IMG/VR virus record: IMGVR_UViG_3300029787_003156
Length of the DNA: 64,000 nt
Source: an uncultured virus (IMG/VR IMGVR_UViG_3300029787_003156)
Lineage: Duplodnaviria > Heunggongvirae > Uroviricota > Caudoviricetes
Direction: 5' to 3' (one strand)
Numbering within the stretch: position 1 is the stretch's first letter; each line of letters starts with the position of its first letter. A program made the position numbers and the translations under genes. Shown here one piece after another: positions 16,026 to 33,700 of this stretch. The notes under the pieces were generated by a model. The model saw nothing but the letters and a program-made list of their open reading frames with translations. It was not told the DNA's origin and did not search any database.

Positions 16026-17675
16026 TCACCTAAAATCAAGCATGTGTTGGACATCCCCATATTCCGCGAGTTGCCATCTTTCCCCTTGAGCATCCACAAT
16101 AACTTCATCTTCTAAACCATCACTTACAAATCCAAATGGTGCCATATCTTGTTCTATTGATTCTCTTTGATCTGCATATATCCTTGCCCTCACATCATTG
16201 TCATTCATTTCTTTAAAGTATTCTTGCATTGCCATCCATGCAAAAATAACAAGACACATAGCAAGGTCATCATGACATCCGTCTTCCGCTTGAAATGAAT
16301 TACCTTTCTGAATAAACGTAGTTAGTTCTGCAATAGTATCGTAATCTGGGACTAATAATTTATCATCCTCTATCAATGCTTTAAGATTAGAACAACCAAC
16401 TTGTTTAACTGCAGTGCTCATCTTTACACCTAGTTGTGTTTTCTTACCAGAAAAACCTTGTCCTAGTTGTTGACCTGCTCTACCACGCATAGCAGCCATT
16501 AATAGATTCTCATATTCCAAATCATATTGAATGATGTCTGCTACCTGTCCACCTATGTCATTTACTTCACAAAGAATATACGCATTGTTATAATTCTTCG
16601 CTACACTTACAATTATATCTGGAAAGATAATAGGTTTAATTTCATTGTTCTTGTACCGTGCAACCATTTGATATGGAACGGTTGTAGAATCCATCACTAC
16701 AAATGCTGAATAGTCTCCTCCGATACCACGAGAGACATCAACAGTAAGTATATAATTATGTCCTTCCTTGCGATCTTCATAGACTGCTAACCCCCTATTC
16801 TGTGTTAATGGATCTTTATATGGCATTACTCCTAACTTACTAGGAGATATAAGGGTATCAACAGAACCTAAGAATTCACAATCAAATTCAACTCTGAACT
16901 GTGATTCAGAGGTATTTTCGATAGTCTGTTGTTTCCACTTGGCATCTCTGCCAGGTACCTGAGACCAGTGTACCTCAGTGGTTTTATAATTGTTTGCTCC
17001 TCTCTCTGCATCGTGCCAAATCTTATAGTAAAGATTCATCCCGTGAGGAGTGGAGATAATAATAACTTTAGTTGACTTACCAGATGAAATTGTAGGATAC
17101 ACACTAGCAAAAAACTGTTCAGCAATATGATTCGGAACAAACGCGAATTCGTCCAGAAAAATAATGTTAAAGGACATACCGCGAACAGCAGAAGCACTAG
17201 TACTTGAAGCGAGGATCTTACTTCCGTTCTCCAACTCCAAGCTTCCTTTGTTCCACCCCAAGATACCTTGTTGCATCCATTTAGGAAGATTCTCGTAAGA
17301 TAACTGTAAGCGTCCCAACATCTCTCTTGCAGTTGGTGCTTTGTTTGCGAGGATTGCGACATTTACATTAGCATTAAAAAGAACATACCATAATAGATAT
17401 GCTGTAACGATTGTTGACTTACCAGACTGTCTAGGTAACTTTGCAATATTGAATCTGTGTTCATGGAATTTTGTTACCATGTCTTCTTGGAAGTCGTACA
17501 TGTCAAATGGCACAACACCTTCATCAAGAGAAACAATTTTAATATACTTTCGTATAAAGTAAATTGGATCTTCAGCACATTTCAAATACTCAGCAACTTG
17601 TTTCTTAGTAAAGTTCTGAGGAACATTTGCTTTTTTAAGATTAGGATTACCTAGGTATACACCTTGCTCTGACAT
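16026..17675 (-). CDS. g17: Terminase large subunit (T4 gp17)
   Basis: YLGNPNLKK, Walker A PRQSGKST, Walker B IIFLDEFAF, STPHG coupling motif, nuclease DVSRG..GDYS and HDDL. Confidence 0.98.
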   Translation of the reverse strand: MSEQGVYLGNPNLKKANVPQNFTKKQVAEYLKCAEDPIYFIRKYIKIVSLDEGVVPFDMYDFQEDMVTKFHEHRFNIAKLPRQSGKSTIVTAYLLWYVLFNANVNVAILANKAPTAREMLGRLQLSYENLPKWMQQGILGWNKGSLELENGSKILASSTSASAVRGMSFNIIFLDEFAFVPNHIAEQFFASVYPTISSGKSTKVIIISTPHGMNLYYKIWHDAERGANNYKTTEVHWSQVPGRDAKWKQQTIENTSESQFRVEFDCEFLGSVDTLISPSKLGVMPYKDPLTQNRGLAVYEDRKEGHNYILTVDVSRGIGGDYSAFVVMDSTTVPYQMVARYKNNEIKPIIFPDIIVSVAKNYNNAYILCEVNDIGGQVADIIQYDLEYENLLMAAMRGRAGQQLGQGFSGKKTQLGVKMSTAVKQVGCSNLKALIEDDKLLVPDYDTIAELTTFIQKGNSFQAEDGCHDDLAMCLVIFAWMAMQEYFKEMNDNDVRARIYADQRESIEQDMAPFGFVSDGLEDEVIVDAQGERWQLAEYGDVQHMLDFR

Positions 17676-18139
17676 TAACCCTCCTGTAAAGTTCCGAATG
17701 ATCTACGTATTTCTCTCAACTCTTCAAAGTTTTTCTGCTTCGTTCCACCATCATACTCCCACGCATACCCTTCCTTTATCATAACTTCGTTCACGGAAAG
17801 AGTATCCTCGCCAATATACAACCACCCAAGAAGACGACCATACTTACCCATCCCCCCTTTAAGTTCGGTTCTGATTGTGAGTTCTTCATCTCCTGCTATT
17901 GTATCCTCTAATTTTTTCTTTAAGTAATTAGTTGCGTCTATACCTAATGCCTTCTCTTCTAAGTCTCTTGTTCTCTTCTCAGGAGTATCAATTCCAGCTA
18001 CACGCACTCTTTCAGATTTGTAAAGATCAAATCCTAAGTCGATTGTCACATCAATCGTATCGCCATCCACTACTCTGTCTATCGACACTACTCGGAAGTT
18101 GTAACAACTCTTCCTGCTCGGTGGCACCATTGCTCCCAT
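17675..18139 (-). CDS. Thermonuclease (SNase-like) family nuclease
   Basis: RVVDGDTIDV, RVRVAGIDTPE, GKYGRLLG, N..MI.EGYAW. Start moved to 18139 (GGAG RBS 7 nt upstream; the ORF track starts at 18145). Stop overlaps the g17 start (TAATG). Confidence 0.9.
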   Translation of the reverse strand: MGAMVPPSRKSCYNFRVVSIDRVVDGDTIDVTIDLGFDLYKSERVRVAGIDTPEKRTRDLEEKALGIDATNYLKKKLEDTIAGDEELTIRTELKGGMGKYGRLLGWLYIGEDTLSVNEVMIKEGYAWEYDGGTKQKNFEELREIRRSFGTLQEG

Positions 18140-18356
18140 AATCATTCTCCAAAAATTCTGCTAGTGCACTATTTATAGTATCTGCAGGATTGGACTGATT
18201 CTGTTGTATTTGATATTGTCTTGCGTCTTCTAATGCTTCGTATAAGTCATCGTAAAATTGATCTCTATCATCAATGGGATTCGCTGTTACTGGTGCTGTC
18301 CCGCACATGGTCAGACTCATCAGTAGTGGTAGTGATAGGATTCGGATACCATTCAT
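18051..18356 (-). CDS. Hypothetical protein with hydrophobic signal-like N-terminus followed by Cys; overlaps both neighbours
   Basis: MNGIRILSLPLLMSLTMCGTAPVTA then an acidic domain; start uncertain (18356, 18320 or 18308). Confidence 0.55.
   Translation of the reverse strand: MNGIRILSLPLLMSLTMCGTAPVTANPIDDRDQFYDDLYEALEDARQYQIQQNQSNPADTINSALAEFLENDYGSNGATEQEELLQLPSSVDRQSSGWRYD
18170..18177 (-). promoter_or_regulatory. Internal late promoter TATAAATA driving the nuclease and g17
   Basis: Exact consensus inside the 18051-18356 ORF, about 30 nt upstream of the nuclease start. Confidence 0.7.
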
Positions 18357-19478: not shown

Positions 19479-20001
19479 CTTGCACTTCTTCTACTATTAC
19501 TGCACTTGTTGCTGCAGCAATTTTTACACAGCGTTGAACTAGTGCTTTAGGACCTGATGAATGTGTGTAATCAGCAGATGCACTAGATGAATCTATATCT
19601 GTACTTAACATATTAGTTAGACTTGCTGCAGTTATTTTCTTTCCTGCTGTTCCTGCAGATAGAAAGTTACTGTCTATGGTAGGACTTGTACTGTTATCTA
19701 CAACAGCAATGAAATCTCCTACAGAAAATGGATGGTTGGCTGAAGTATCTGAAAGATGCTGTCCAACAAAGTAATCTGCTGTAGAATCGTCTACTGCTTT
19801 TATAATCTGTGCTTGACCTGGCTTACCACCTTTGACAAGAATGAATTCATTCTGAACAAGTGTGATTGCAGGACCACTACCGAAGGTTACAGTTGCTGCA
19901 CCTGCAGTAGATCCAACTCTATAAAACCCAGTTTTTACAACCTGATATTCGGTTGCACCTGCTGCAATAGTGTTGGTGCTTAATACATTAAGGACTGTCA
20001 T
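19465..20001 (-). CDS. Putative virion structural protein
   Basis: 178 aa, beta-rich Ala/Thr/Ser composition; ATAAATA at 20030-20036 inside the end of g16. Confidence 0.65.
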   Translation of the reverse strand: MTVLNVLSTNTIAAGATEYQVVKTGFYRVGSTAGAATVTFGSGPAITLVQNEFILVKGGKPGQAQIIKAVDDSTADYFVGQHLSDTSANHPFSVGDFIAVVDNSTSPTIDSNFLSAGTAGKKITAASLTNMLSTDIDSSSASADYTHSSGPKALVQRCVKIAAATSAVIVEEVQVVGG

Positions 20002-20009
20002 TGTCGTGT

Positions 20010-20447
20010 CTATGTTGTTTCTGTATCTTTATTTATCTGTTTTTGTTGCTTCAACATCTTCTGTAGATCAGATGTGCTCCCTACAAACATAGCATTAGTT
20101 ACATTTGTAGGACCTTTTTTATCTTCTTTATCAAGGTCTTTCATCTTACCTTGCAAGTCAATTAACTTATCTGCTACATCTCCCACAGATTTGATGAGTT
20201 GCCCTGCCACCTCATAAGCACGAGGATGATCTGACGCTCGTGCCACATCAAGTATTCCATCTACTGCCTCCTGTCCTTTCATTACTAAGTTATGTAGTTG
20301 AGCACGAGATATCTCGTAATCCTGTTGTACATCAGCAGTTTCACTCTTCTTAAGAGAAGGTTTAACTTTATCTACATGCTTTTTAAGGTCTGATGGTTCA
20401 GCACCAAAAGCATTATCTAGTCCGTCAAATGGATTCATCGGCACCAC
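20010..20447 (-). CDS. g16: Terminase small subunit (T4 gp16)
   Basis: DYEISRAQLHNLV.KGQEA, SDHPRAYEVAGQLIK, NAMFVGSTSDLQKML; true start may be 20438. Confidence 0.93.
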   Translation of the reverse strand: MVPMNPFDGLDNAFGAEPSDLKKHVDKVKPSLKKSETADVQQDYEISRAQLHNLVMKGQEAVDGILDVARASDHPRAYEVAGQLIKSVGDVADKLIDLQGKMKDLDKEDKKGPTNVTNAMFVGSTSDLQKMLKQQKQINKDTETT

Positions 20448-21456
20448 TTACAGGATTAAACTTCTTCTGATCTTGGAAGAATGAAGTAGTTTCATTAAAT
20501 CCAAAATCGTCCTCAGAATCAACCAATACATCATCAGCAGCATCAAGTTTGAATACTTGTGCACCACCTACAGCAGTTGCTGCAGTAGTTCCATTTCTTC
20601 CTCTTTGTACATGAACTGTGTTACCTGTCTTATTAGTAACTTTCATAACCTCACTACCAATATAAAGATCATCCCATTTAACAATAGTAGATGCGTCTAC
20701 CATATCGATACTAGTAGTTGATGCTGTAATGTTACCTGATAGTGTAGTAACTACAACTCCATCCTTATCTGACCATGCTTCTGGTGTAGCAGTGTAACGA
20801 ACCTGTCTTGGTGCAACACTTGTATTTGCAGATGAATAGTAATCGACTTGTGCCTTTTTGATAACTTTCTGTTCTGTAACAGGACCGTATAGGTAAGTCT
20901 TTGCAGTGAATCTTAGAGTATAAATGATTGCTCTACGAGTAGAAAAATCTGATTCATAATCATCTTCATAGTCTATAGATTGTAGAACTACAGGCACATC
21001 CTTTATCTCTTTCATTTGAGTTATCAACTTCACAGGTAAATTATAATGAGGTTGAAATATAGGTAGTATCTGTTCTAAAATTTGTAGACCATCATCTTGG
21101 TTCTTAGAAATAATTGCTAGTTCAAAATCCAAATTGTATGGAACTGGCATGTAAGTATTATAATTTTTATCTACGTCTTTTGTAATTTTTATCTTCTGAG
21201 TAGGAGAAACTTTTCTAGCAGGATCATAGGTAACACCTGCAATCTCAAAAGAAATTCTAGGTAAAGTAATCTGAACTCTTTTATTTGTAGGATCAGGATT
21301 CTGATCTAAACGTGCTAAGAATTTTTGCTTAGGACCATAAGCAAGAGGAACTTTCATAACCTCTGTGCTTCTTCTCAACTCAATATTATTGAATAGAGTT
21401 CCAAAACCAACGATGGTCTTTCTGAATATTTCGTGATAAGAATAAGTGCCTAGCAT
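20425..21456 (-). CDS. g15: Tail sheath stabiliser / tail completion protein (T4 gp15), with an inserted C-terminal beta domain
   Basis: YHEIFRKTIVGFGTLFNNI, KVPLAYGPKQKFLARL, LPRISFE, PVPYN, QILEQILP.FQP, YLYGPV. Confidence 0.95.
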   Translation of the reverse strand: MLGTYSYHEIFRKTIVGFGTLFNNIELRRSTEVMKVPLAYGPKQKFLARLDQNPDPTNKRVQITLPRISFEIAGVTYDPARKVSPTQKIKITKDVDKNYNTYMPVPYNLDFELAIISKNQDDGLQILEQILPIFQPHYNLPVKLITQMKEIKDVPVVLQSIDYEDDYESDFSTRRAIIYTLRFTAKTYLYGPVTEQKVIKKAQVDYYSSANTSVAPRQVRYTATPEAWSDKDGVVVTTLSGNITASTTSIDMVDASTIVKWDDLYIGSEVMKVTNKTGNTVHVQRGRNGTTAATAVGGAQVFKLDAADDVLVDSEDDFGFNETTSFFQDQKKFNPVSGADESI

Positions 21457-22382
21457 TAGATTGTCAAGTCATTAGTGGATCCGACTGATCCGAATGGATT
21501 AGTTTCGGAGAAGTCAATAATATCATCATCAGCAGTTTCAAACTCAGAGTTTTGATCGTACTCGATGTTCTTATTATCTATGGTGTTATAAGATGCGGTT
21601 GTCCAAGATGCACTAGATGTGCCTCCTGTAAGTGTTTCGGGAACTGTGAATGTTCCAGAACGATTTATAACGATAAGAGTTCTAGTAGCAGAATCCCAAG
21701 ACTTAACTTCAGCAGTAACATTAGATGTTCCACCTGTTACAATCTCACCTACAGTAAAGTCACCACTACCACCAGTAGCAAGACCAACTGTAATAGCATT
21801 TGCAAATGCAGTCTCGATAGCATCTAGTTCTGCAAGACCAGTATCGATTGACTCATCACTGTACTCGAAGAGTTCACACTGACATTCCCATACAAAATTT
21901 CTACCTAACTGATAGAAAGGTCTTTCTACTTCTACAAATTGTATTTCAAATAAATGTTTAGTTATAGGAAACCAAATTAGATCCCCTTCGTTTGGTCTTC
22001 CTTCGACATTAAGGACTGTAGAGTCGTCAATTTTTTCTTTAAACTTTTCACGGGAGAATATAAACGTCGTTTTATCTTCGATACGTATTCCAAATTTTGT
22101 AAGTAACTCACCTTGTCCTTCCCATCCTTCGACATTATTGATATATGCTCTGATTGGTTTTGCAGACTCGAACTTACCGTCTGAATCTTCTCCGAAAACC
22201 GTGTCACGATTGACGATAGTTCTCGGAACATAATAGATGTCTTGTCCATAAATTTCAATACTTTCTACTACTAAGTTTTCAATAAATTTTTGTTCCTGTT
22301 CAGAACCATTTGCTCTTAAACGACCACTATTACTGTAGTCTGATTGAACATAATCTTGAGCAGGGGTATTAGAAATTGCCAT
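21456..22382 (-). CDS. g14: Neck protein (T4 gp14)
   Basis: E.IEIYGQDIYYVPR, RPNEGDLIWFP, LFEIQFVE...PFYQLG, CELFEYSDE, DFSETNPFG. Confidence 0.95.
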   Translation of the reverse strand: MAISNTPAQDYVQSDYSNSGRLRANGSEQEQKFIENLVVESIEIYGQDIYYVPRTIVNRDTVFGEDSDGKFESAKPIRAYINNVEGWEGQGELLTKFGIRIEDKTTFIFSREKFKEKIDDSTVLNVEGRPNEGDLIWFPITKHLFEIQFVEVERPFYQLGRNFVWECQCELFEYSDESIDTGLAELDAIETAFANAITVGLATGGSGDFTVGEIVTGGTSNVTAEVKSWDSATRTLIVINRSGTFTVPETLTGGTSSASWTTASYNTIDNKNIEYDQNSEFETADDDIIDFSETNPFGSVGSTNDLTI

Positions 22383-22383
22383 G

Positions 22384-23190
22384 TTAACCTATCAAATCTA
22401 AAGGTGGAAGTTCATAACGATTACGAAGTTCTTCTTCAAGATCTTTTTTAAACGTAGAACCATCTTCTAGGATTTGCCTACCGTTTAAAGTAACACCGCC
22501 TAGCATTTGAATACCATCATACTTACTTAGGTTGCGACCCCATTGCTGTTGAAATAATGACTCAACATAATCTTTTAACCAGTTATCATTATACATGGCA
22601 GTGTACGTATCTGGGTCTTGACGCATATTACAATCAACCATAATATAATCACCTACTTCTATATCTTTCCAATCAAAGTCCATATAAAGTTTGCCTTGCA
22701 ATTCATTCCATTTAACTCTACGATTTGCTTGAGAATTGGTTACCCAATCTAAAGTCTCAAGATATTGAGAAGTCATAAAGTAATGTAAGATACGACCATG
22801 TGTCATATTATGAATATCATTCAAGAAAAGTTGATATTTAATATTGAATATATTACCACTCGACATCTTTGACATACCAATATTGGTATAAACATGATTG
22901 ATACCTAACATTCCTGGAGGTGTGTCGATATAATTATCTAAACCATACCAAGGAGTTGAACCTTCTTGTGTAGTTCCCCTTCCCGAATCTAACATTGCCT
23001 GTGTAACTTCAACTCTCATGAAAGTTTTAAAACTTCCATTGTAATGATATTCTTGATAGTAATCAATTGCTTCTTCGACTAGATCATCTAGTTGCTCAGT
23101 AGCAACGTTAATGTCTATCGTAGGATATCCTAATCTACGAAGAGCATAGTTTTTTATTTCAGTTTTACTAGCGGGTCTTGTTGCAGACAT
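22384..23190 (-). CDS. g13: Neck protein (T4 gp13)
   Basis: YALRRLGYPTIDINV..EQLDD, WLKDY, QWGRNL.KYDGIQM.GGVTLNG. Confidence 0.95.
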   Translation of the reverse strand: MSATRPASKTEIKNYALRRLGYPTIDINVATEQLDDLVEEAIDYYQEYHYNGSFKTFMRVEVTQAMLDSGRGTTQEGSTPWYGLDNYIDTPPGMLGINHVYTNIGMSKMSSGNIFNIKYQLFLNDIHNMTHGRILHYFMTSQYLETLDWVTNSQANRRVKWNELQGKLYMDFDWKDIEVGDYIMVDCNMRQDPDTYTAMYNDNWLKDYVESLFQQQWGRNLSKYDGIQMLGGVTLNGRQILEDGSTFKKDLEEELRNRYELPPLDLIG

Positions 23191-23196
23191 TTTTTA

Positions 23197-26100
23197 TTAT
23201 CCGAATGAACTTATAGTCAAGTTAGTAACATCATTAGCACCAACAGTTTCTCCAGATTTGAAGAATCCGTCTACATTATCAACAGTAACAGAACTGCTAT
23301 CCATAGCAGTTATAACTCCAGTTGTACCAGAAGTTGCTCCTATTACCATTCCACCGATTTCCATTGCAGTAATGTCACCCAGTGCGAAGGTTGCATCTGT
23401 GAATACAGTAGCAAGGTTAACTGTTGCATCAACAAATACGCTTGCAACATCGAACGTTGCGTTGTTGTCAAACACTGCTGATATAGGAATTGTGCAACCA
23501 TTACCATGTATTGCTGACACAGTAAATTGAGCAGTTCCACTACCCCCTGCAATAGTTATAACTTCAGATGCTGCATAACCAGATCCATCATCATTGATTG
23601 TAACAGCAGTTATTGCTCCATCTCCATCAACTGTAGTATCAACTGTCAATCCAGTTCCTGATCCAGATGAAGTTGTAGCAACTCCACTTCCAGCTGTGTA
23701 TCCTGTTCCTGCAGTCGTAATAGAACCAAGAGTTTTAGCACCTGTTCCATTAGCATTTACAATAGTAACAACATCAGATACTGCATAACCAGATCCATCT
23801 GCATTGATTGCAACTCCAGTAACTACTCCTGCTGATGTAGTGAGATCAACTGTTAGTCCAGATCCATTTCCTCCAACAACTGCAATACCAGATCCATTAG
23901 CGTATCCTGTTCCTGCAGTAGCAATAGTTCCTAGTGTTTGTACTCCACCACCGTTAGGGTTAGTAATAGTAATAGTGTCATCAACAGCGTATCCAGTTCC
24001 TGCAGCATTTACTGCAACCCCAGTTACTTGACCACCTGATGTAGTAACATCTACTGTTAAACCGCTTCCCCCACCACCAGTCGTTGCAACTGCAGTTCCA
24101 TTAATGTAACCAGTTCCAACAACAAGAGTATCTGTTGTAGCTACTCCACCTGCATTAGGATTTGTAAGTGTAATTGTTTCACCATTTGCATAACCAGTTC
24201 CTGCAGCATTAACTACAAGGTTTGTAATTGCTCCAGATGCATCTACTGTAGTATCAAGAGTTAATCCAGTTCCTGATCCACCAGTTGTTGCAACAGCAGT
24301 TGCATTGCTGAATCCACCAGTTCCAGTTACTAATGATCCAAGGTTCAATGTAGATACACCACCTGCATTAGCATTTGTGAGTGTTAAAGTATCGCTTATT
24401 AAGTATCCAGTACCTGCAGCATTTAATGTGATTCCAGTTATAGCACCATTTGTTACAGTCGTATCAACTGTTAATCCAACTCCAGTTCCACCATTTGTTG
24501 CGACTCCTGTTGCTCCTGTAAATCCTCCTAGACCACTTGCTGTAATAGATCCAAGTGATACAACATTACCAGGTGTAGGATCTCCAGATAGATTTATTTT
24601 TAATGTTGTTGTAGTAGCAAGATTAGTTAACATTGCTTTTAGTTGATCATAAGCATTGTCAATTTTTGCTTGAACTCTTGCTTCTGTATAGTATTGATTA
24701 GATGTTCCTTCTGATAGTTGATCAGTATCATGGTTATCAAGATTTGTTGCCTGTGTTGCAGTAGCAGGAGTAATATCAACAGTTCCATCAAAGGTTGTTC
24801 CACCAATAGTTCTTGCAGTTTGTAATCTTGTTGCAGTATCAGCATTACCTGTTAGAGCACCAGTTACATTAGCATTAATATTATTGGTAACGTTGAGAGT
24901 ATTGGCATATACATATGCCCATCTGTGTGTATTAGATCCTAGATTCCAAGTAGCATCAGCAACAGGAACAATTGATTTTGCAGTACTTGTTGCGTTAGTT
25001 AAATTACCACCTAAATCACCAGTTACGTTAGTTATAGTTGCTGAGCTACCAGTGAAATTATCTGAGTATGTGTATGCATATCTCTGTGTGCTTGATCCTA
25101 AGTTCCAAGTGGAATCAGCTTGTGGTATTATATTTCTTGATACTGTGCTTGCATTAGTTAAGTTACCACCTAAATCACCAGTTATATTGGTAATAGTTGC
25201 CGAAGTAGCAGTTACATTACCAGAATATACGTAAGCCCATCTAACTGTGTTTGAACCTAAGTTCCAAGTAGCGGTAGCTTGTGGTATTATATTTTTTGAT
25301 ACTGTGCTTGCATTAGTTAAGTTACCACCTAAATCACCAGTTATATTGGTAATAGTTGCTGATTGAGCAACGACGGTATCTGAATAAGAATAAGCCCATC
25401 TGACAGTATTAGATCCTAAGTTCCAAGTGGAATCAGCTTCTGGAATAAAGTTCCTTGCAGTACTTGTTGTGTTAGTTAAGTTTCCACCTAGATCACCAGT
25501 TATATTGGTTATAGTTGCTGAAGTAGAAGTTACATTACCAAAATATCCATAAGCCCATCTGACAGTATTAGATCCTAAGTTCCAAGTAGCAGTAGCTTGT
25601 GGAATAAAGTTCTTTGCAGTAGTTGTTGTGTTAGTTAAGTTTCCACCTAGATCTGCAGTTATATTTCCTGCAGAGAAGTTACCAGATCCATCACGTAAGA
25701 CTAAGTTGTCAGATGCATTGTTAGATGTAGAAGCAACGTTGATTGTAGTAGCACCAGAAACACCATCAGCATTTGTTAGTGTAATACCTGAGTTTCCTGT
25801 AACTTGGAAAGTTCTTTGTGCGAAAGTATTAGCAGCAGTTCTTACAACATAACCTGTGCCAGTCATTCCTGATAATCCAGTTATATCAGGATCATCAAAT
25901 GTTGTTGTAAGTGTAATATCTGAACCACCATTAATGCTTATAGTTCCATTTACAACACCGTCAACAGTTAATGTTCTAGCAGTCTTCCATTCGTCAGCAG
26001 TAATTGCGTTACCTTGAATACCTGCACCAGATCCAGTTCCAGTTGCGACAGTAATAATATTAGCAGCAAAGTCTCCAGATGAGTCACGATTAACAACCGT

Positions 26101-29100
26101 AGATGCGGTTGCTGCAACAGCAGTTGTCATACTGTCTAGTAAGTCTGCGTTTAGATTATTAATCTTATCAGTTGTTGGAATAACAAGAGCAGGTCCTGAT
26201 GTTACCTGAGATGTAATTTGACCATCTACAGTTAAGGTTCCATCTATATTTGCATTTGCATCAATGTCAACAGATTGTCCTGCACCTGTAACATGAAGAG
26301 AACCAACTCTTAAAGGAGCATCAGTTCCTGTAAAGATTTCTGAATTATTAGTAGCGTCTGTTAAGAATGTAAATTCTAAGGATGATCTATCTAATCCGAA
26401 GTACCCAATTTTAGCAGAGCCGTCGTAGTAACGGAACTCAACACCGCGATCCTTAGCATCGTTAGACGATGGTGCTGTGTCACCACCCAAAGTAATAACA
26501 GGGTCATCGAGAGTTGTGACCGTGCTGTTGACAGTAGTTGTTGCTCCATTGACTATTAAGTTACCTCCAACTGTAAGATCATTATGGAATTCTCCATCTC
26601 CTGTTAAATTAGTAACAGTAAATGCAGCTCTTGTGTTATTGTTATCATAAACAATAAAGTCACCACCAATGTAAGTATTTTTAGTAATCCTTGCACCACC
26701 ATCATTAGTAAATGCTACAGAATTATCTGCAAAACTTGTGGCATCCTGAGTATTGCTAATGTTAAACTTACCAGATACATCAGTATTGTTATCAATATCT
26801 ACAGTTCCAGATAGTGTAGTATTACCATATACTCTTGCATCAGTTCCTACAGCAAGTCTCTTAGTAATTCCAACACCACCACTAATTCTTACACCACCAT
26901 CTACACCGAATGATCCAGTAATAGTTTGATCACTAGCATTTGTTAGACTTGTTATTCCAGTAACACCAAGAGTAGAATTAATTTGTGATGTGCTACCAAC
27001 AGTTAATGTTCCAACAATATTACTATTACCATTGTCAGTATCAACTGTAAACTTATTAACACCAGAACCATTCTGAATTAAGAAGTTCTCATTAGAAGCA
27101 TTGATTACAAGTGAATCAATGATATTTGTTTGACCTTGTACTGTTAATGTTCCTTGTGTTTCTGTATTACCATTATCAGAATCAACTGTAAATTTATCTA
27201 CAGAACTATTATTCTGTATCTTGAACATCTTATTGTCAGCGTTCAAGATGATATTGTCTTGGAAGGTTGCTTGTCCATCAACATTTAGAGTTGAATCAAA
27301 GTCAACAGTTGCATTTACTGTGAGATCATCTGTAAATGTTGCGTCCGCATTAACAGTTAAAACATCAGTATTAGCATTACCAATAGTTGTCTGAGATCCG
27401 TTAACTGTAAAGTTGTCAGTAAGAGTTGTAACTCCGACTATATCAACTGTTCCTTGTATAGTTGTATTTCCATTATCTGTATCAACTGTAAATTTATTGC
27501 TGTTTGAGTTGTTCTGTATTTTGAACATCTTATTGTCAGCATTGATAGTCACGTTATCTTGGAACGTTGCACCTGCATCAACATTTAAGGTTGAATCAAA
27601 ATCAACAGCTGAGTTTACATTTAGTAAACCTGCAATAACTGTATTACCATTATCACTATCTACTGTAAACTTATCAACAGATCCATTTGTCTGGATCTTA
27701 AACATCTTATTATCTGCGTTAAGTGTTACATTGTCTTGGAATGTAGCACCACCATCTACGTTTAATGTTGTATCAAGATCGACAGCTGAGTTTACATTTA
27801 ATTCACCTGATATAACTGTGTTACCGTTATCTGTATCAACTGTAAACTTATCTGCAGCTGCAGCAGTTTGAATCTTGAAGAACTTGTTGTCTGCTTTTAT
27901 AGTAGTCGCATCACTTACTACTAGAGTACCTGCAATAGCAGTGTTACCAGAAGATGCTGTAATATTAAATTTGTCAGTGTTTACATCTACATTGCCTGTA
28001 ACAGCAAGGATGCCTTCCATAGTAATATTACCAGTTGTAGATCCTGCAGTAATTTTTGCAGTTCCACTTCCGTTCTTCATTATGAAGTTCTTAGAAGCAC
28101 CTTGAACAACTACTTCATCATCAAATCTAGTAGTTCCACGAGTTCTTAAGTTAGTATCAATATCAACTGTTCCACCAATATTAACATCTTGTCCTATACC
28201 TACACCACCTGCAACTACTAAGTCTCCAGTTGTGTTAGATGTTGAGTTAGTATTTGTTGTGAGTTTGATATTACCCGTGATGATCCCTGCATCTGTTCCC
28301 GCAAATACTTCCGAGGTATTTGTGGCATCGTAGAGGAATCTGAATCCTCCACTGTGTCCTCCGAGATCCGTGTAAGAATCGTCGTAACCAAAGAATCCCA
28401 CTCTTGCTTGAGTGTCATAGTATCTGAACTCAACTCCACGATCTTTACCGTCATCACTAGCTGGAGCAGTATCACCACCAAGAGTAATAATGGGATCATC
28501 CAACGTTGTAACTGTTGAATTAATTGTTGTAGTCGTTCCATCTACTTGTAAGTTTCCTCTAATAGTTACTAAACCACTAACATCTCTATCATCATTAGGG
28601 TCAATTAATATATTTCCAACAGCACCAATATGGTCTGCTTGGAACCTCATAGTTTCTATATGTACCTTTCCAGTTGCAGCAGTGGCATCAATATCTACTA
28701 CATCTTCTGCAGATAATGTTAATGTGCTAGTTCCAGAGCCTGCGTTAGTAGAAGTTACAGTTAGGTTTCTATCTACTGCAGTGTTTTGTGTGAGTTCTAT
28801 GTTGAAATCACCATCTCCAGTCTTATCAATCTGTTGTGTAGTTGCACCATCCAGAATAAAATCTGGATCACTGAATAATGTTTTTACATTTATATCTACT
28901 TCACCTGCTCCACCATCTCCTGTGTTGTTAGCACCGAAAAGTAAATTACCTGATGTGTCATTTACTTTAACGTAGTTAAGATAGTTAAATCCTCTGTATC
29001 CGCTTGTTGCAGTTAATTCCTGATCTAGTTCAAAATTCTCTAATGTATTACCATCAGCAAATCCAATTCTATTATTCTGTAGTTGACTATTATCAACTCC

Positions 29101-30234
29101 TACTGCAGCAATAGTAACATGACCATTTGAATCTACGTCAAAATCTTCTTGAGCAAATGATGCTAAACCTTTTTGTTCTACTGCAGCAGCAGCGAGGTAT
29201 CTCCAACCATTAGTATCAGATGAATCTGTATGTGTTGGTGCAATTCCTCCAGAACTAATATCTTGAATCGCTTGATATACCTTACTTCCTGTTTCAATTA
29301 TATTATCTCTTACATAATTAGTAGCACCATTGAATGCACCATACTTACTACCTTCAGTAGCAGTTGCTATAGGAAGATTAGTAGCTGATGTTATTCTTCC
29401 ATCTTCATTAACAGTGAACTTAACTGCGTTTACAGTTTCAGTTCCAAATGGTTCGTTACTACCTCCTACTGCATTAACAGAAGTTAAAGACTCTGTATTA
29501 TAATTACCTTGAGTTACAGCAGTTGTTATAAGGTTAATAGTAGGATTACCATTAACACCTGCACCATTATTAATTTGTATTTTTCCTGCAGTACCAGTAA
29601 TCGTTCTGGTTGCCATAGCACCACCAGACGTTCTAGCGATCATACCAGTCGTTGTGAGACCTGCAATAGCAACTAGGTCTAAATCATAAGGTTGAGCAGA
29701 AGCACCCTCTGTAGTCCCGTCTAGACCGTAATCAGCAAGCGTTCCATTATTACCTGTAGTATAGTCTATCGCTGCGGTAATTCTACCTTTTGCGTCTACA
29801 GTTACTTTGTTATAAGTTCCAGATGAAGAAGCTGTTCCATCGTAATGAGGAAGAGTTGCAACTAAAGAAAGTTCTGCAGCAAGGTTTAAGTTCTGTGATC
29901 CATCAAATGTTCCTGTGGCACTTAGGTCATCAGATAGAGTTATTTGTCGAGTTGAAGAAAGTCTAGCAGCAGTTGAAGAGTTACCAATTAGAGTCGCAGT
30001 TATAACACCCGCAGCAAAATTACCGTCAGCATCCCTTTGTACAAGAGTGTTTGCAGTATTAGATATGGATTCAACAGGTCTTTCGTATCGCAAGGTATTC
30101 CATGCTGATACTCCATCACCAATCTTAAATCGACCAGTATCTAATTCTATACCCAATTCACCTTGTGCAAGAGTCGGGTTGGAGTTTGCCCATTCCTGTG
30201 CACCACCCCTTCTTAATTGTAATCTATTTGCCAT
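23197..30234 (-). CDS. Long repeat-rich fibre protein (2345 aa) with an Mtd-N/hyaluronidase-like N-terminal anchor
   Basis: N-terminus RLQLRRG.A.EW...NPTLAQGELGIELDTGRFKIGDG..AW..L; Gly/Thr/Asn-rich shaft repeats; lies upstream of g13, where T4 has wac. Confidence 0.85.
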   Translation of the reverse strand: MANRLQLRRGGAQEWANSNPTLAQGELGIELDTGRFKIGDGVSAWNTLRYERPVESISNTANTLVQRDADGNFAAGVITATLIGNSSTAARLSSTRQITLSDDLSATGTFDGSQNLNLAAELSLVATLPHYDGTASSSGTYNKVTVDAKGRITAAIDYTTGNNGTLADYGLDGTTEGASAQPYDLDLVAIAGLTTTGMIARTSGGAMATRTITGTAGKIQINNGAGVNGNPTINLITTAVTQGNYNTESLTSVNAVGGSNEPFGTETVNAVKFTVNEDGRITSATNLPIATATEGSKYGAFNGATNYVRDNIIETGSKVYQAIQDISSGGIAPTHTDSSDTNGWRYLAAAAVEQKGLASFAQEDFDVDSNGHVTIAAVGVDNSQLQNNRIGFADGNTLENFELDQELTATSGYRGFNYLNYVKVNDTSGNLLFGANNTGDGGAGEVDINVKTLFSDPDFILDGATTQQIDKTGDGDFNIELTQNTAVDRNLTVTSTNAGSGTSTLTLSAEDVVDIDATAATGKVHIETMRFQADHIGAVGNILIDPNDDRDVSGLVTIRGNLQVDGTTTTINSTVTTLDDPIITLGGDTAPASDDGKDRGVEFRYYDTQARVGFFGYDDSYTDLGGHSGGFRFLYDATNTSEVFAGTDAGIITGNIKLTTNTNSTSNTTGDLVVAGGVGIGQDVNIGGTVDIDTNLRTRGTTRFDDEVVVQGASKNFIMKNGSGTAKITAGSTTGNITMEGILAVTGNVDVNTDKFNITASSGNTAIAGTLVVSDATTIKADNKFFKIQTAAAADKFTVDTDNGNTVISGELNVNSAVDLDTTLNVDGGATFQDNVTLNADNKMFKIQTNGSVDKFTVDSDNGNTVIAGLLNVNSAVDFDSTLNVDAGATFQDNVTINADNKMFKIQNNSNSNKFTVDTDNGNTTIQGTVDIVGVTTLTDNFTVNGSQTTIGNANTDVLTVNADATFTDDLTVNATVDFDSTLNVDGQATFQDNIILNADNKMFKIQNNSSVDKFTVDSDNGNTETQGTLTVQGQTNIIDSLVINASNENFLIQNGSGVNKFTVDTDNGNSNIVGTLTVGSTSQINSTLGVTGITSLTNASDQTITGSFGVDGGVRISGGVGITKRLAVGTDARVYGNTTLSGTVDIDNNTDVSGKFNISNTQDATSFADNSVAFTNDGGARITKNTYIGGDFIVYDNNNTRAAFTVTNLTGDGEFHNDLTVGGNLIVNGATTTVNSTVTTLDDPVITLGGDTAPSSNDAKDRGVEFRYYDGSAKIGYFGLDRSSLEFTFLTDATNNSEIFTGTDAPLRVGSLHVTGAGQSVDIDANANIDGTLTVDGQITSQVTSGPALVIPTTDKINNLNADLLDSMTTAVAATASTVVNRDSSGDFAANIITVATGTGSGAGIQGNAITADEWKTARTLTVDGVVNGTISINGGSDITLTTTFDDPDITGLSGMTGTGYVVRTAANTFAQRTFQVTGNSGITLTNADGVSGATTINVASTSNNASDNLVLRDGSGNFSAGNITADLGGNLTNTTTTAKNFIPQATATWNLGSNTVRWAYGYFGNVTSTSATITNITGDLGGNLTNTTSTARNFIPEADSTWNLGSNTVRWAYSYSDTVVAQSATITNITGDLGGNLTNASTVSKNIIPQATATWNLGSNTVRWAYVYSGNVTATSATITNITGDLGGNLTNASTVSRNIIPQADSTWNLGSSTQRYAYTYSDNFTGSSATITNVTGDLGGNLTNATSTAKSIVPVADATWNLGSNTHRWAYVYANTLNVTNNINANVTGALTGNADTATRLQTARTIGGTTFDGTVDITPATATQATNLDNHDTDQLSEGTSNQYYTEARVQAKIDNAYDQLKAMLTNLATTTTLKINLSGDPTPGNVVSLGSITASGLGGFTGATGVATNGGTGVGLTVDTTVTNGAITGITLNAAGTGYLISDTLTLTNANAGGVSTLNLGSLVTGTGGFSNATAVATTGGSGTGLTLDTTVDASGAITNLVVNAAGTGYANGETITLTNPNAGGVATTDTLVVGTGYINGTAVATTGGGGSGLTVDVTTSGGQVTGVAVNAAGTGYAVDDTITITNPNGGGVQTLGTIATAGTGYANGSGIAVVGGNGSGLTVDLTTSAGVVTGVAINADGSGYAVSDVVTIVNANGTGAKTLGSITTAGTGYTAGSGVATTSSGSGTGLTVDTTVDGDGAITAVTINDDGSGYAASEVITIAGGSGTAQFTVSAIHGNGCTIPISAVFDNNATFDVASVFVDATVNLATVFTDATFALGDITAMEIGGMVIGATSGTTGVITAMDSSSVTVDNVDGFFKSGETVGANDVTNLTISSFG
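24868..25662 (-). repeat. Five tandem 159-nt (53-aa) coding repeats in the fibre gene
   Basis: Unit ITGDLGGNLTN..T...N.IP.A..TWNLGS.T.RWAY.Y...; the DNA motif ccacctagatc/ccacctaaatc recurs at 159-nt spacing (about 25007, 25166, 25325, 25484, 25643). Confidence 0.9.
26990..27900 (-). repeat. Degenerate coding repeats (ADNKMFKIQ....DKFTVD.DNGNT) in the fibre gene
   Basis: Five recognisable copies in the translation, the first three about 59 aa apart; boundaries approximate. Confidence 0.8.
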
Positions 30235-30273
30235 TTCTTTTTAGGACAACTCTATGAGAACATGCTTCCAAGT

Positions 30274-30280
30274 TATTTAT
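30274..30280 (-). promoter_or_regulatory. Late promoter ATAAATA for the fibre-g13-g16 operon
   Basis: Directly downstream of a terminator, the same layout as at g23/g3. Confidence 0.7.
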
Positions 30281-30286
30281 GTCACT

Positions 30287-30310
30287 AAAAAAGGGGAACT
30301 CCTGTCCCCC
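30287..30310 (-). terminator. Rho-independent terminator
   Basis: Minus strand GGGGA-CAGGAGT-TCCCC followed by TTTTTT. Confidence 0.75.
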
Positions 30311-30321
30311 CTTAAAATGAT

Positions 30322-30561
30322 TTATTCAGTTAACTCAGGAGACTCGGAAGTTACATCATCCTCTTCAATAATTGGAGGGGATTCTGTGTCGCCTGGTGGA
30401 GAATAATACTCCAATGCTTCTATAGCACCTTGAAGTTTCAATGCTTGAACTTCATTTTGTTTGATTTTACCAGCTAGTTCCTGGTTTTCTTTGATCAACC
30501 CACTGTATCTCTCTTTAAATTGGGAGAGCATTTGATCTTGACCGATCTTTTCCATTGTCAT
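30322..30561 (-). CDS. Small coiled-coil hypothetical protein (79 aa)
   Basis: Heptad pattern ...LKLQGAIEALEY and acidic tail; ATGA overlap with the upstream gene. Confidence 0.7.
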   Translation of the reverse strand: MTMEKIGQDQMLSQFKERYSGLIKENQELAGKIKQNEVQALKLQGAIEALEYYSPPGDTESPPIIEEDDVTSESPELTE

Positions 30562-30779
30562 GAATTTTTTGCTAACGTTAACAAGAGAGATTTTATCTCA
30601 CTCATATCTGATTTTAGGCTATAAACATCATTTTGTAAAGCCTTAAAATCTTCTTTCTCCTTCAGATCTGCTCTATATGCAGCCATGTATTGTTCATACT
30701 TAGCGGAATCAGAACACGAAACTGCTCCTGTTATATCATCTTTGTACCAATTTTCAATGTCTTTAATTGGAACTTTCAT
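30558..30779 (-). CDS. Small hypothetical protein (73 aa) with C-terminal coiled coil
   Basis: Coupled to the DUF4815 gene stop; ...LKSDMSEIKSLLLTL tail. Confidence 0.7.
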   Translation of the reverse strand: MKVPIKDIENWYKDDITGAVSCSDSAKYEQYMAAYRADLKEKEDFKALQNDVYSLKSDMSEIKSLLLTLAKNS

Positions 30780-33700
30780 TATACAGCAAGAGCGATAGCT
30801 CGTAAATCTTTAACGATTGGTGCGTATGCTTGGTTTGGAGATACAAACACAAGTTTAACTTGGTATTGTGAGAAATCTAAACCTGCAACCTCATACTCAT
30901 AATCGTAGTATTGTAACTCATCAGAAGTTTGAGGAATCTTAGCATCACCAGTAGGGAAGAATTCCCATCCTAGAGTCTCTATAGAATCAGTAGATCCCGA
31001 AGGTAGTACTCTATATAGAGGTTTAATTTCAGTGTTAGCTGGGCGATAACCCGCAAACATTAATTTAATAGAAGACGATGGATTACTTAAGTCAGCAACC
31101 TTAGTAATATAGACTCCATTATGTCCGTCACCAACTGGTAACTGAGCAGTATTAGGATCTGCAGGAGCGTTGATTCTATGACTGATTGTAGTAATAGACA
31201 TTCTGTCAGTATCAACAACAGGAGTTACATTATCAGATTCACTGAATAGTGTTAGATCCAGTCTAAATGACTTAGCACCACTTAATTCTGCAGACTCGTT
31301 TTGAGCAGAGCATATTAACTGTGGAGCAACAAAGTAATTATCTTCACCTAGGTTTACATCATAGAACTCTCCAGTATTACTGAATGAGTTTTGTGATAAT
31401 GACTGTCCATCATTAATTGATGTTCCAGTAATAGTATTAACTCTTGCTGTGATCAAAGTCTTAGGAAGAGTCATTCTCTGAATTTGTGGTGAGAGAATTT
31501 CATACTGTATGTTCTGAGATGCAATAACATTAGTAGCACCAGATCTAATACCTAATCTACCAATAGATGAAGTTGCAAGATCGTAACTGTCTAAAGTAGG
31601 ACTTTGTATATTAGTATGAGTCTTATTGATTTCAGTTAGAGGAATACCATCTAAGTTATAACATTCCACATTTGTTTCATCAGCATGACTTACTGCTGTA
31701 GTTCCAGCTAGTCCTCTTTCATTAACAGTAATAGTTTTACCAGTTCCACTAATTCCAGTATAGGACATGATTTCATCTTCTATCTTGATATAACCAAGAT
31801 TTAATGTACCAACATTAGCACCGTTAATAACGGTATGGAATGCTGTTGCATCATTAACCTGTATGGTTGTATCAGATGCTGATATAGATGATGTTAAGTA
31901 TGTTGGTGATACCTCAGATGTAACACCTTCGATAACAACATTATTATCTGTATCATGCATACCGTGGTGTGAATGCTGTATAGTTACTCTTCTTTGAGAA
32001 GTAGTATATGTTGGAGTGCTACTTGGGAATGCATCTTGAACAGTTGAAGATGAAACGTTATCTCCAGAGTAAGTTATAGAACCAACAGTTGCAGTCTTAG
32101 TAGAAGTTCCACCAGTAATTTGTTCAGTAGAAGATGTGAATGTAGTTGAAACATATTTAAGTGTTAATGTTCCTGCACCACCGCCACCATCTGTCCAACT
32201 AACAACCTCTGCAGTTGGAGCAGAAGCACTGTTACCAGTTATAGTTTCACCAACAGTAAAGTCACCTGATGCACTTGTTACTGCCATAGTAGCAAGAGTC
32301 TTAGAAGAAACTATTCTGTTAATAATAGTTCCACCAGTTGATGAACCTGACTGCCATGTTCCTGATATATCATTGATAGTTAACAGAACTCCTGCATTAC
32401 TATCTGTAATTTCTTTAATTGTTCCTTGAGCAAGAGTCGTCTTTTGATAAACACGAGCACCAACTGTATAAGGAAGGGTTGCATTGACAGCATTCATTAC
32501 TAACTGTAACTCTGGTTGATATGTTTGAACTGGATCAGTTCTTAATACAATCTTACCACCGTTACCTATGTCTAAAGGAGCATTGTTTAATGTTAACTGA
32601 GAAGCAACACTGGTATTAAATACCGCTTTATAAACAACGAACTTAAGATCTTCGTACTGGTCTGCAGTCCATGTAGTTGCGTTCTGTGATTTGAATAGAA
32701 CACCTGCATATGGTTGTTCAGATATAGTTCTGTCTCCAGTAATATCTAACTCACCCATTCTAGAGATCCAAACCTGATATTCATTAGAGTCTGAGAATAG
32801 AACAAAACAATGTTCAATAGACTGAGGAATATAAACAGGTGCTTGGAATGTAAACTTAGTCGCAATAGCACCAGTTTCAGATGTCTGAATAGTATCTGGA
32901 GTTACAGTAACGTCAGAGAATGGAAGAATACTTGTTGTTGGATATCCATTTGACATAGTTCTGATCTGCATAGAGATCGGAATATTACTATCTTTAGCGT
33001 TGAAGTAAACATCAACAGAAGTAATAAACACACCACCAGTTTCATCAACTAAGAATGATTGTGCAAGTGGATCCCACCAACCAACCTGACGTGTTTCAGT
33101 TCTAGTTGTTTGGACAGTTCTATCTTGAGTTACAGTATCTTGAACAATATCAGCATTTCTAATTGATAATACATTTTCTTGTAATGTATTCAATGTACCT
33201 GTTGCTGCATATTCTGTTTGTGCAGCAGATGCAACTGTTCCAAATGTTCTAGAATCATCTGAATTAGTTGTTAATCTTAGTAGTCTACTACCAGTTGCCC
33301 AACGTGGATTTGTATTGACTTGAGGTTGTGGTATAAAGAATGAACCTTTCCACTGTCCTAATCTATCAGTCATCAATCTACGATCACGAACAACTGCTCT
33401 TGCACCAGATGTTCCAACTAAAACTTCACCTACTTGTATATTACCGTAGTATTGTCCAACTGCCTGAGCAGCAAGTGATTCAGTATCAACGTTGATAAAG
33501 TTAGTAGTTGAAGAATATGATGATGGCATATCAGTATCATCATAAGGATTCCATGTAAAGAAGTTGTTTGGAGCAGAAACTCTAAATCTAGCACCACTTA
33601 CTAAACCTCTAACTGTCTCACCAATTACAAATGGTGTTGAGTTTGTTCTACTATCTGTAGAAGGATTTTTAATAACTTCAAGAACTTTTGGCATCATGTA

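Follow-up and report, generated by a model that had tools for sequence, protein, structure and literature searches.

A cyanophage fibre C-terminus that very probably forms a self-nested rod of β-barrels, each closed by a returning strand

The subject of this analysis is the C-terminal part of a 2345-residue fibre protein encoded in a 64,000-nucleotide stretch of DNA from an uncultured cyanomyovirus (IMG/VR record IMGVR_UViG_3300029787_003156; hereafter, the window is this whole stretch). The C-terminal block of the protein consists of five similar units (U1–U5) followed by five short strands (S5–S1), and it very probably forms a self-nested rod of five β-barrels, each closed by one returning strand. 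The chain would lay down five incomplete barrels of five strands each, turn at the far end and, on its return path, give each barrel its sixth strand in reverse, in the order U1 U2 U3 U4 U5 S5 S4 S3 S2 S1. Each barrel would be an insertion into the last loop of the preceding barrel. The distal tip would be the U5/S5 hairpin, not the C-terminus of the protein, and the true C-terminal domain would lie back at the base of the rod. A chain that runs out and back, with one returning strand completing each unit in reverse order, had been proposed in a preliminary description of the window made from the sequence alone. The proposal is supported here by the equal numbers of units and strands in orthologues, by a relative (P0012) with tandem copies of the domain, by a model of the two innermost levels, and by mirrored insertions and deletions (indels). 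We further infer the pairing of S3–S1, the shape of the rod and its orientation with the tip toward the host.

Units and closing strands of the C-terminal block

The features of the fibre C-terminus are listed below with their positions in the window and their residues in the fibre protein. Unit scores are those of a hidden Markov model (HMM); model residues are those of the AlphaFold2 model of U4, U5, S5 and S4 described below, and confidence is given as the predicted local distance difference test (pLDDT).

23197..30234, minus strand: whole fibre gene, a 2345-residue open reading frame (ORF), orthologue of the cyanomyovirus 'YadA domain-containing structural protein / fiber' (T4-GC 402)
24616..24684, minus strand: helix before the block, residues 1851-1873; sole helix of a low-confidence model of the whole C-terminus (construct residues 10-33, pLDDT 59-65)
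24571..24615, minus strand: N-terminal flanking strand ending LSGDPTP, residues 1874-1888; put forward in the preliminary description as the putative first strand of a split terminal domain
24355..24570, minus strand: unit 1, predicted outermost barrel without its last strand, residues 1889-1960; 90.8 bits
24142..24354, minus strand: unit 2, residues 1961-2031; 91.0 bits
23941..24141, minus strand: unit 3, of a short-start type, residues 2032-2098; 92.3 bits
23737..23940, minus strand: unit 4, residues 2099-2166; 97.4 bits; model residues 1-68, pLDDT 85-93
23530..23736, minus strand: unit 5, innermost and presumed distal tip, residues 2167-2235; 88.9 bits; model residues 69-137, pLDDT 90-96
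23497..23529, minus strand: strand S5, predicted to close unit 5 and contiguous with it, residues 2236-2246; β-strand at model residues 138-144
23461..23496, minus strand: strand S4, predicted to close unit 4, residues 2247-2258; β-strand at model residues 149-155
23428..23460, minus strand: strand S3, assigned to unit 3 by mirrored order, residues 2259-2269; outside the folded construct
23395..23427, minus strand: strand S2, assigned to unit 2 by mirrored order, residues 2270-2280; outside the folded construct
23371..23394, minus strand: strand S1, assigned to unit 1 by mirrored order, residues 2281-2288; of a strand type that is always last in orthologues
23200..23370, minus strand: C-terminal domain of 57 residues, residues 2289-2345; conserved in all orthologues; no Pfam family matched

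Positions 23371-24570 correspond exactly to residues 1889-2288 of the fibre, read from the minus strand; a plus-strand reading is ruled out, as the frame is full of stops. The five units of about 68 residues and the five short strands (8-12 residues) named in the preliminary description are all present, the strands just as quoted there. The units share 40-61% pairwise identity over 66-70 aligned positions, and Tandem Repeats Finder detected no repeat of them at the DNA level. Five spaced strand-core motifs, defined by a pattern written after the strands had been seen, occurred in none of 5000 composition-preserving shuffles of the 54-residue strand block. A conserved I-H-G-N-G ends most of the returning strands; at the same site the remainder have F, A, Y or W. 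There is one histidine per strand and no H-x-H motif within residues 1889-2288.

The flanks that had been described also proved to be present: a T-rich strand ending in SGDP precedes the block and the 57-residue domain containing MEIGG follows it. The motif L[SDN]GDP marks the N-terminal flank in 191 of 191 parsed loci. The helix at residues 1851-1873, predicted with low confidence, may be a coiled-coil segment. A Pfam search of the fibre C-terminus returned nothing, and the ESM Atlas, searched with the innermost domain and with the 57-residue terminal domain, gave only unnamed viral clusters.

Unit and strand numbers in orthologues

The preliminary description predicted that orthologues with n units would have n closing strands, and this holds in all 112 unique C-termini compared. 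These were obtained from 207 fetched loci (4 named phage loci and 203 IMG/VR loci), 191 of which had both anchors and 16 of which were cut by contig or flank ends, together with the window. An HMM of the five units in the window, supplemented by a regular expression that recognizes a divergent tip unit, gave the unit counts, and the core motif at a minimum spacing of 9 gave the strand counts; three late additions (L198, L177 and L203) were parsed only with wider anchors. The number of levels is two in 57 of the C-termini, three in 6, four in 19, five in 13, six in 13, seven in 2 and eight in 2. A single unit with a single strand was read by eye in two further representatives, P0092 and P0096.

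When the strand counts were shuffled among the sequences (2000 trials), at most 49 of the 112 matched their unit counts. The length of the strand block, a measure independent of the parser, increases by 11.15 residues per unit (r = 0.985). With seven states of n, at least six changes of n have taken place; a tree of the flanks gives 18, a noisy figure from only about 100 columns. If each unit is indeed closed by one strand, the rod would differ in length between phages in whole-barrel steps (n = 1-8), and some relatives would carry a divergent tip barrel.

This divergent tip unit is longer, ends in D-A-Q-L-G-G-G-G and replaces the innermost barrel in 23 of the 112 unique C-termini, where it is followed by its own strand type. 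Its carriers include L002, L003, L032, L038, L042, L043, L048, L056 and L198; it is absent from the window. The unit is a candidate exchangeable tip at the distal end. A separate variant is seen in the two-level loci L177 and L203, where the sequence of the last strand and the beginning of the terminal domain is K-T-M-T-V-G, compared to T-T-M-E-V-G in all others, and where both strands are of the His type.

Model of the two innermost levels

Residues 2099-2258 of the window's fibre (U4 U5 S5 S4) were modeled by AlphaFold2 with a mean pLDDT of 91.4 and a predicted TM-score of 0.75; the five models ranged from 80.0 to 91.4 in pLDDT. This stretch contains two complete levels with no segments joined artificially, and the alignment used (A4, 78 rows) adds its counterpart from 77 orthologues of every depth. 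The model consists of five strands in U4, five in U5, and then S5 and S4 at the model residues listed above, with no helix. Six strands fall within model residues 68-144 (U5+S5).

An exhaustive structure comparison placed sheath proteins in its three best rows, all on model residues 69-145 (U5+S5). The innermost barrel can be superposed onto T4 gp18 (3fo8_D, chain residues 99-188) with a Z score of 5.5 and a root-mean-square deviation of 2.8 Å for 73 aligned residues, at 25% identity. A second gp18 structure (3foa_A) gives a Z score of 5.1, the gp18 matches having 23-25% identity over 69-73 residues, and the KP1 sheath (9ev2_S1) gives a Z score of 4.9 at 30% identity. In the available part of the report on gp18, domain I (residues 98-188) is described as a six-stranded barrel plus a helix (PMC3004832). 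The model of U5+S5 likewise agrees, at a moderate Z score, with the six-stranded barrel of about 80-90 residues expected of a gp18-like domain I.

Nine of the 50 rows listed span the model from residue 1, 2, 9 or 10 to 157-160, with only 54-77 aligned residues. The chains in these rows are EF-Tu domains and baseplate proteins, and barrels of the same kinds align to model residues 62-147 in other rows. Such short alignments with a wide span are as expected if U4 and S4 form a split outer barrel in the model. They indicate, indirectly, a domain made up of two stretches of chain with another complete domain between them. The structures predicted for orthologues in BFVD, which come from the same prediction method with different alignments, agree with the two-level model at a TMq of 0.67-0.72 over 170-175 columns. 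A profile search of PDB sequences found nothing credible (best E 0.063; spike and filamin chance matches at E 0.02-0.13).

The barrel domain in other proteins

A profile of the innermost unit with the first strand, which are contiguous (A3, 78 rows), detected 3070 representative proteins at E ≤ 0.001, of which 527 reached E ≤ 1e-10. One of them, P0012, contains three tandem copies, with each unit's own strand placed directly after it. It follows that the domain includes the strand and that a unit lacking it is incomplete.

Other relatives are nested at a different point. P0006, P0023 and P0025 contain the same domain split after the third strand, not before the last, with first and second halves in equal numbers (5+5, 3+3, and 1+1 then 2+2). 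Together with 12 more representatives, they form a set nested at this other split point, with profile E values of 1e-32 to 1e-53. HMMs of the half-domains, run on 150 representatives, classified 15 as cleanly nested (depth of at least 2), 19 as tandem, 47 as containing second halves only and 68 as unbalanced. Nests of the fibre type are read as 'ABAB' by these HMMs, because the 11-residue strands are invisible to them. A type IX secretion sorting domain is present in P0006 and P0009, and P0006 has a PA domain as well; nesting in this barrel family is therefore not confined to fibres. The preliminary description had suggested a general design principle in this phage's appendages, on the strength of a second repeat family with the same logic; the nesting at a second split point, in unrelated proteins, is that of the same barrel family.

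P0006, P0009, P0014, P0015, P0018, P0023 and P0044 (538-982 residues) have the same barrel 3-5 deep, split after the third strand. In the very large proteins P0004, P0005, P0011, P0021 and P0087 (2838-3526 residues), the 21-36 stretches matched are almost all second halves only, which may represent another use of the half-motif, without nesting.

Order of pairing

S5, the first strand, follows on directly from the innermost unit, and one strand type is always last. Sixteen close pairs of orthologues differ by one level; in 15 of these the extra unit and the extra strand occupy mirrored positions, as scored by the removal that best restores the alignment. The mirrored indels account for five of six distinct patterns, three of them internal. 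In the sequences compared, the short-start third unit co-occurs with a distinct third-from-last strand, an association that may reflect a single clade. Opening and closing segments that agree in number and are mirrored in position have the arrangement of nested insertions.

Strength of the nested interpretation

Several points weigh against the nested interpretation. On the counts, the parser was tightened after its first version had over-counted strands in 12 of 103 sequences (overlapping regular-expression matches, recognized by eye), and the 112 sequences are not independent trials since the orthologues are related. On the order, one of the 16 one-level pairs is not mirrored, with margins of 0.02, and the association of unit and strand types did not separate the schemes: mirrored pairing has a mutual information of 3.12, compared to 3.02-3.10 for other fixed pairings, a failure due to clusters that were too fine.

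On the model, the folded construct covers the innermost two of the five levels, the pairing of strands with barrels is deduced from alignment ranges, and a monomer model is blind to strand exchange between chains. The preliminary description had looked to an AlphaFold prediction of the C-terminus for strand complementation in reverse order. AlphaFold2 of the whole 504-residue C-terminus (residues 1842-2345, 10-row alignment) reached a pLDDT of 37.2 and was unusable, while the two-level fragment gave a confident model of two barrels, with U4+S4 apparently split around the inner one.

On the fold, the match to gp18 domain I is moderate, as even models that lack clear relatives typically reach a best Z score of 7-8, and Foldseek found nothing in the PDB for the model at E ≤ 0.001. 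The Pfam family Gp18_dom_I (PF22639) matches 5 of 78 members, with a best E of 0.032, below the gathering cut-off (for P0012, 19.5 bits compared to a cut-off of 27). An hhalign comparison with the phage's own sheath gave a probability of 0.15. Membership of the fibre domain in the gp18 domain I family is thus not supported by sequence.

Alternative explanations

The tip of the T4 long tail fibre, gp37, is an out-and-back chain whose distal tip is a turn and whose C-terminus returns toward the base; it is an intertwined trimer with H-x-H metal sites on the outgoing and returning strands. The C-terminal block of the cyanophage fibre would resemble gp37 in being an out-and-back chain in a phage fibre, and could on this analogy be an intertwined trimeric needle, with the returning strands forming a central core (conserved His/Phe on the axis), the units decorating it and the equal numbers reflecting a matched length. 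This is the strongest of the alternatives, and we regard it as improbable. The protein is probably a trimer, as is likely for a fibre that has a helix immediately ahead of the block. The residues conserved at one site of the returning strands (the His of I-H-G-N-G on most, F/A/Y/W on the others) would suit a core, and the monomer fold of the whole C-terminus failed. However, the two-level fragment folds confidently as a monomer made of discrete barrels, with each strand placed within a barrel-sized alignment, and the strands have a single His each, unlike the H-x-H sites of gp37. Further points against the needle are that the domain exists as simple tandem copies, each with a strand of its own (P0012), and that it is nested in proteins other than fibres that carry a type IX secretion sorting domain (P0006 and P0009). 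A three-copy prediction of a two-level orthologue (A2, 47 rows) scored 0.02, without controls, and speaks neither for nor against a trimer.

It is very unlikely that the block consists of two independent tandem arrays, one of complete five-stranded domains and the other of 11-residue repeats in a separate sheet or solenoid, whose counts agree through ancestry or a length constraint. Equality in 112 of 112 C-termini across seven values of n, with at least six changes of n, is hard to reconcile with such arrays, as are the mirrored one-level differences in 15 of 16 pairs. Tandem relatives have the strand as part of the domain, and the model places S5 inside the barrel that resembles gp18 domain I. 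What such arrays might explain is the mirrored pattern of types, which could be mimicked if terminal repeats diverge and inner ones homogenize; the type-association test left the pairing schemes not clearly separated, and recombination between repeats is reported for the S-TIM4 gene in the available part of one study (PMC6224464).

It is equally unlikely that units and strands pair in parallel, the first unit being completed by the first strand, or that the chains of a trimer swap strands to complete the barrels: S3–S1 are outside the model and a monomer model cannot reveal exchange between chains, but the innermost unit runs straight into the first strand and aligns with it as one barrel, indel positions are mirrored, and parallel order would require long crossing connections for which the 11-residue spacing appears too short.

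Comparison with known nested proteins

The self-nested rod that we prefer has partial parallels in known structures. In T4 gp18, according to the available part of the structural report, domain I is inserted into domain II (residues 88-97 and 189-345), which is in turn inserted into domain III (residues 24-87 together with 346-510) (PMC3004832). The fibre and gp18 are alike in that both are built by nesting and that U5+S5 best matches the six-stranded barrel of domain I. In gp18, however, the nested folds differ from one another and the depth is fixed, whereas the fibre would insert one fold into itself, one to eight levels deep. In addition, the barrel of gp18 domain I has a helix packed on it, while the fibre model contains no helix.

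Si3 of the cyanobacterial RNA polymerase β′ subunit comprises eight sandwich-barrel hybrid motifs (SBHMs), and SBHM-2 to SBHM-5 are assembled from distant parts of the chain, as described in the accessible portion of its report (PMC10895346). In both Si3 and the fibre, copies of one small β-fold make up an elongated body that is not a simple tandem row. Si3 has a different fold, is irregular (four of its eight copies are continuous) and is a fixed insertion in the trigger loop, in contrast to the regular fibre nest of varying depth. No chain of Si3 or RNA polymerase is among the 50 structure matches listed, a result that leaves families outside that list unaddressed.

Further parallels are the relatives nested at the other split point (P0006, P0023, P0025 and 12 more), which have the same domain and, as in the fibre, equal numbers of halves. 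They differ in dividing the domain after the third strand, and some, with PA and type IX secretion sorting domains, are not phage fibres.

Function and implications

The nested rod most likely sets the reach of the fibre and presents its host-contacting end, a role that we assign with moderate confidence because the gene product is part of the virion and, in a relative, acquires mutations as the phage adapts to hosts. The available part of the S-TIM4 study states that the orthologue mutated in every host-adaptation line and that repeats inside the gene recombined (PMC6224464). The same part of the study does not name S-TIM4 ORF108 among a group of 14, and the sole S-TIM4 position quoted in it, residue 580, is outside the nested block (PMC6224464).

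Tentatively, recursive self-insertion may provide a general and evolvable route to rods made from barrels of this family. As part of that suggestion, and on the same provisional footing, bracket-like architectures (AB, AABB, AAABBB, AABABB and ABAABB, with two split points) would extend across phage fibres and secreted bacterial proteins. If recursive self-insertion is confirmed, changes of depth in whole steps would let a phage tune the reach of its fibre and swap the tip barrel with both ends of the chain untouched, and the nests of up to eight levels would be the deepest regular domain-in-domain nests that we found described. We found no published description of the fibre nest in the literature searched, which did not cover subscription journals. 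What would be new here is the strict regularity, the insertion of one fold into itself, nests as many as eight levels deep and whole-step variation in nature. Known cases of nested insertion, gp18 and Si3 among them, mostly have a single level or a few irregular ones, whereas the fibre appears to follow a strict rule of one strand per unit.

Such nests would offer a system for studying the folding of discontinuous domains, since the outer barrels could not close before the whole inner chain had been made. They also raise the questions of how levels are gained and lost, and of how rod length and tip identity affect host recognition. The distal end of the fibre is probably a hairpin in the middle of the sequence, which shifts where host-range determinants should be sought in a gene carried by abundant marine cyanophages.

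Genomic context and other repeats of the fibre

The window belongs to a T4-like marine cyanomyovirus, as judged by megablast of positions 20000-32000, which matched 273 phage records at 60-90% identity, all of them Synechococcus or Prochlorococcus phages or cyanophages. The fibre ORF belongs over its full length to phrog_697 ('structural protein'; E=0, 2684.6 bits, 7 stretches), and Pfam identifies an Mtd_N domain at its N-terminus (residues 6-43, E 1.1e-12). Orthologues are annotated as 'YadA domain-containing structural protein' or 'fiber' and stand directly before gp13/gp14. The fibre gene of the window is likewise directly upstream of these neck genes, and the same order is found in Syn19, P-RSM4, P-SSM4 and S-SSM6b. 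On its other side are a 2408-residue ORF and two baseplate wedge genes. The two genes on the neck side are:

22384-23190: head-tail adaptor Ad2, adjoining the fibre gene
21456-22382: head closure Hc2, beyond the Ad2 gene

The 2408-residue ORF (30779-38005, minus strand), immediately upstream of the fibre gene, matches phrog_358 (function unknown) along its whole length; the neighbour at this position is named VrlC protein in relatives.

The fibre contains further repeats outside the nested block. Two closely similar segments of about 100 residues (28264-28566 and 26272-26574, minus strand; residues ~557-657 and ~1221-1321) flank its central repeat region; both have the motif NSTVTTLDDP and a DRGVEFRYYD stretch, and they may be the two halves of the other nest to which the preliminary description alludes. 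Four repeats opening with A-D-N-K-x-F-K-I-Q (27058-27894, minus strand; residues ~781-1059) have spacings of 59, 59 and 100 residues, and the irregular spacing of 100 suggests an insertion within one copy. Just upstream of the helix and the nested block are five repeats with an exact period of 53 residues and the motif W-N-L-G-S (24856-25689, minus strand; residues ~1516-1793), a region with a weak match to phrog_26775. Elsewhere in the window, a 156-residue endonuclease (17675-18145, minus strand; phrog_452, E 2.8e-69) is encoded by a gene that abuts the large terminase gene.

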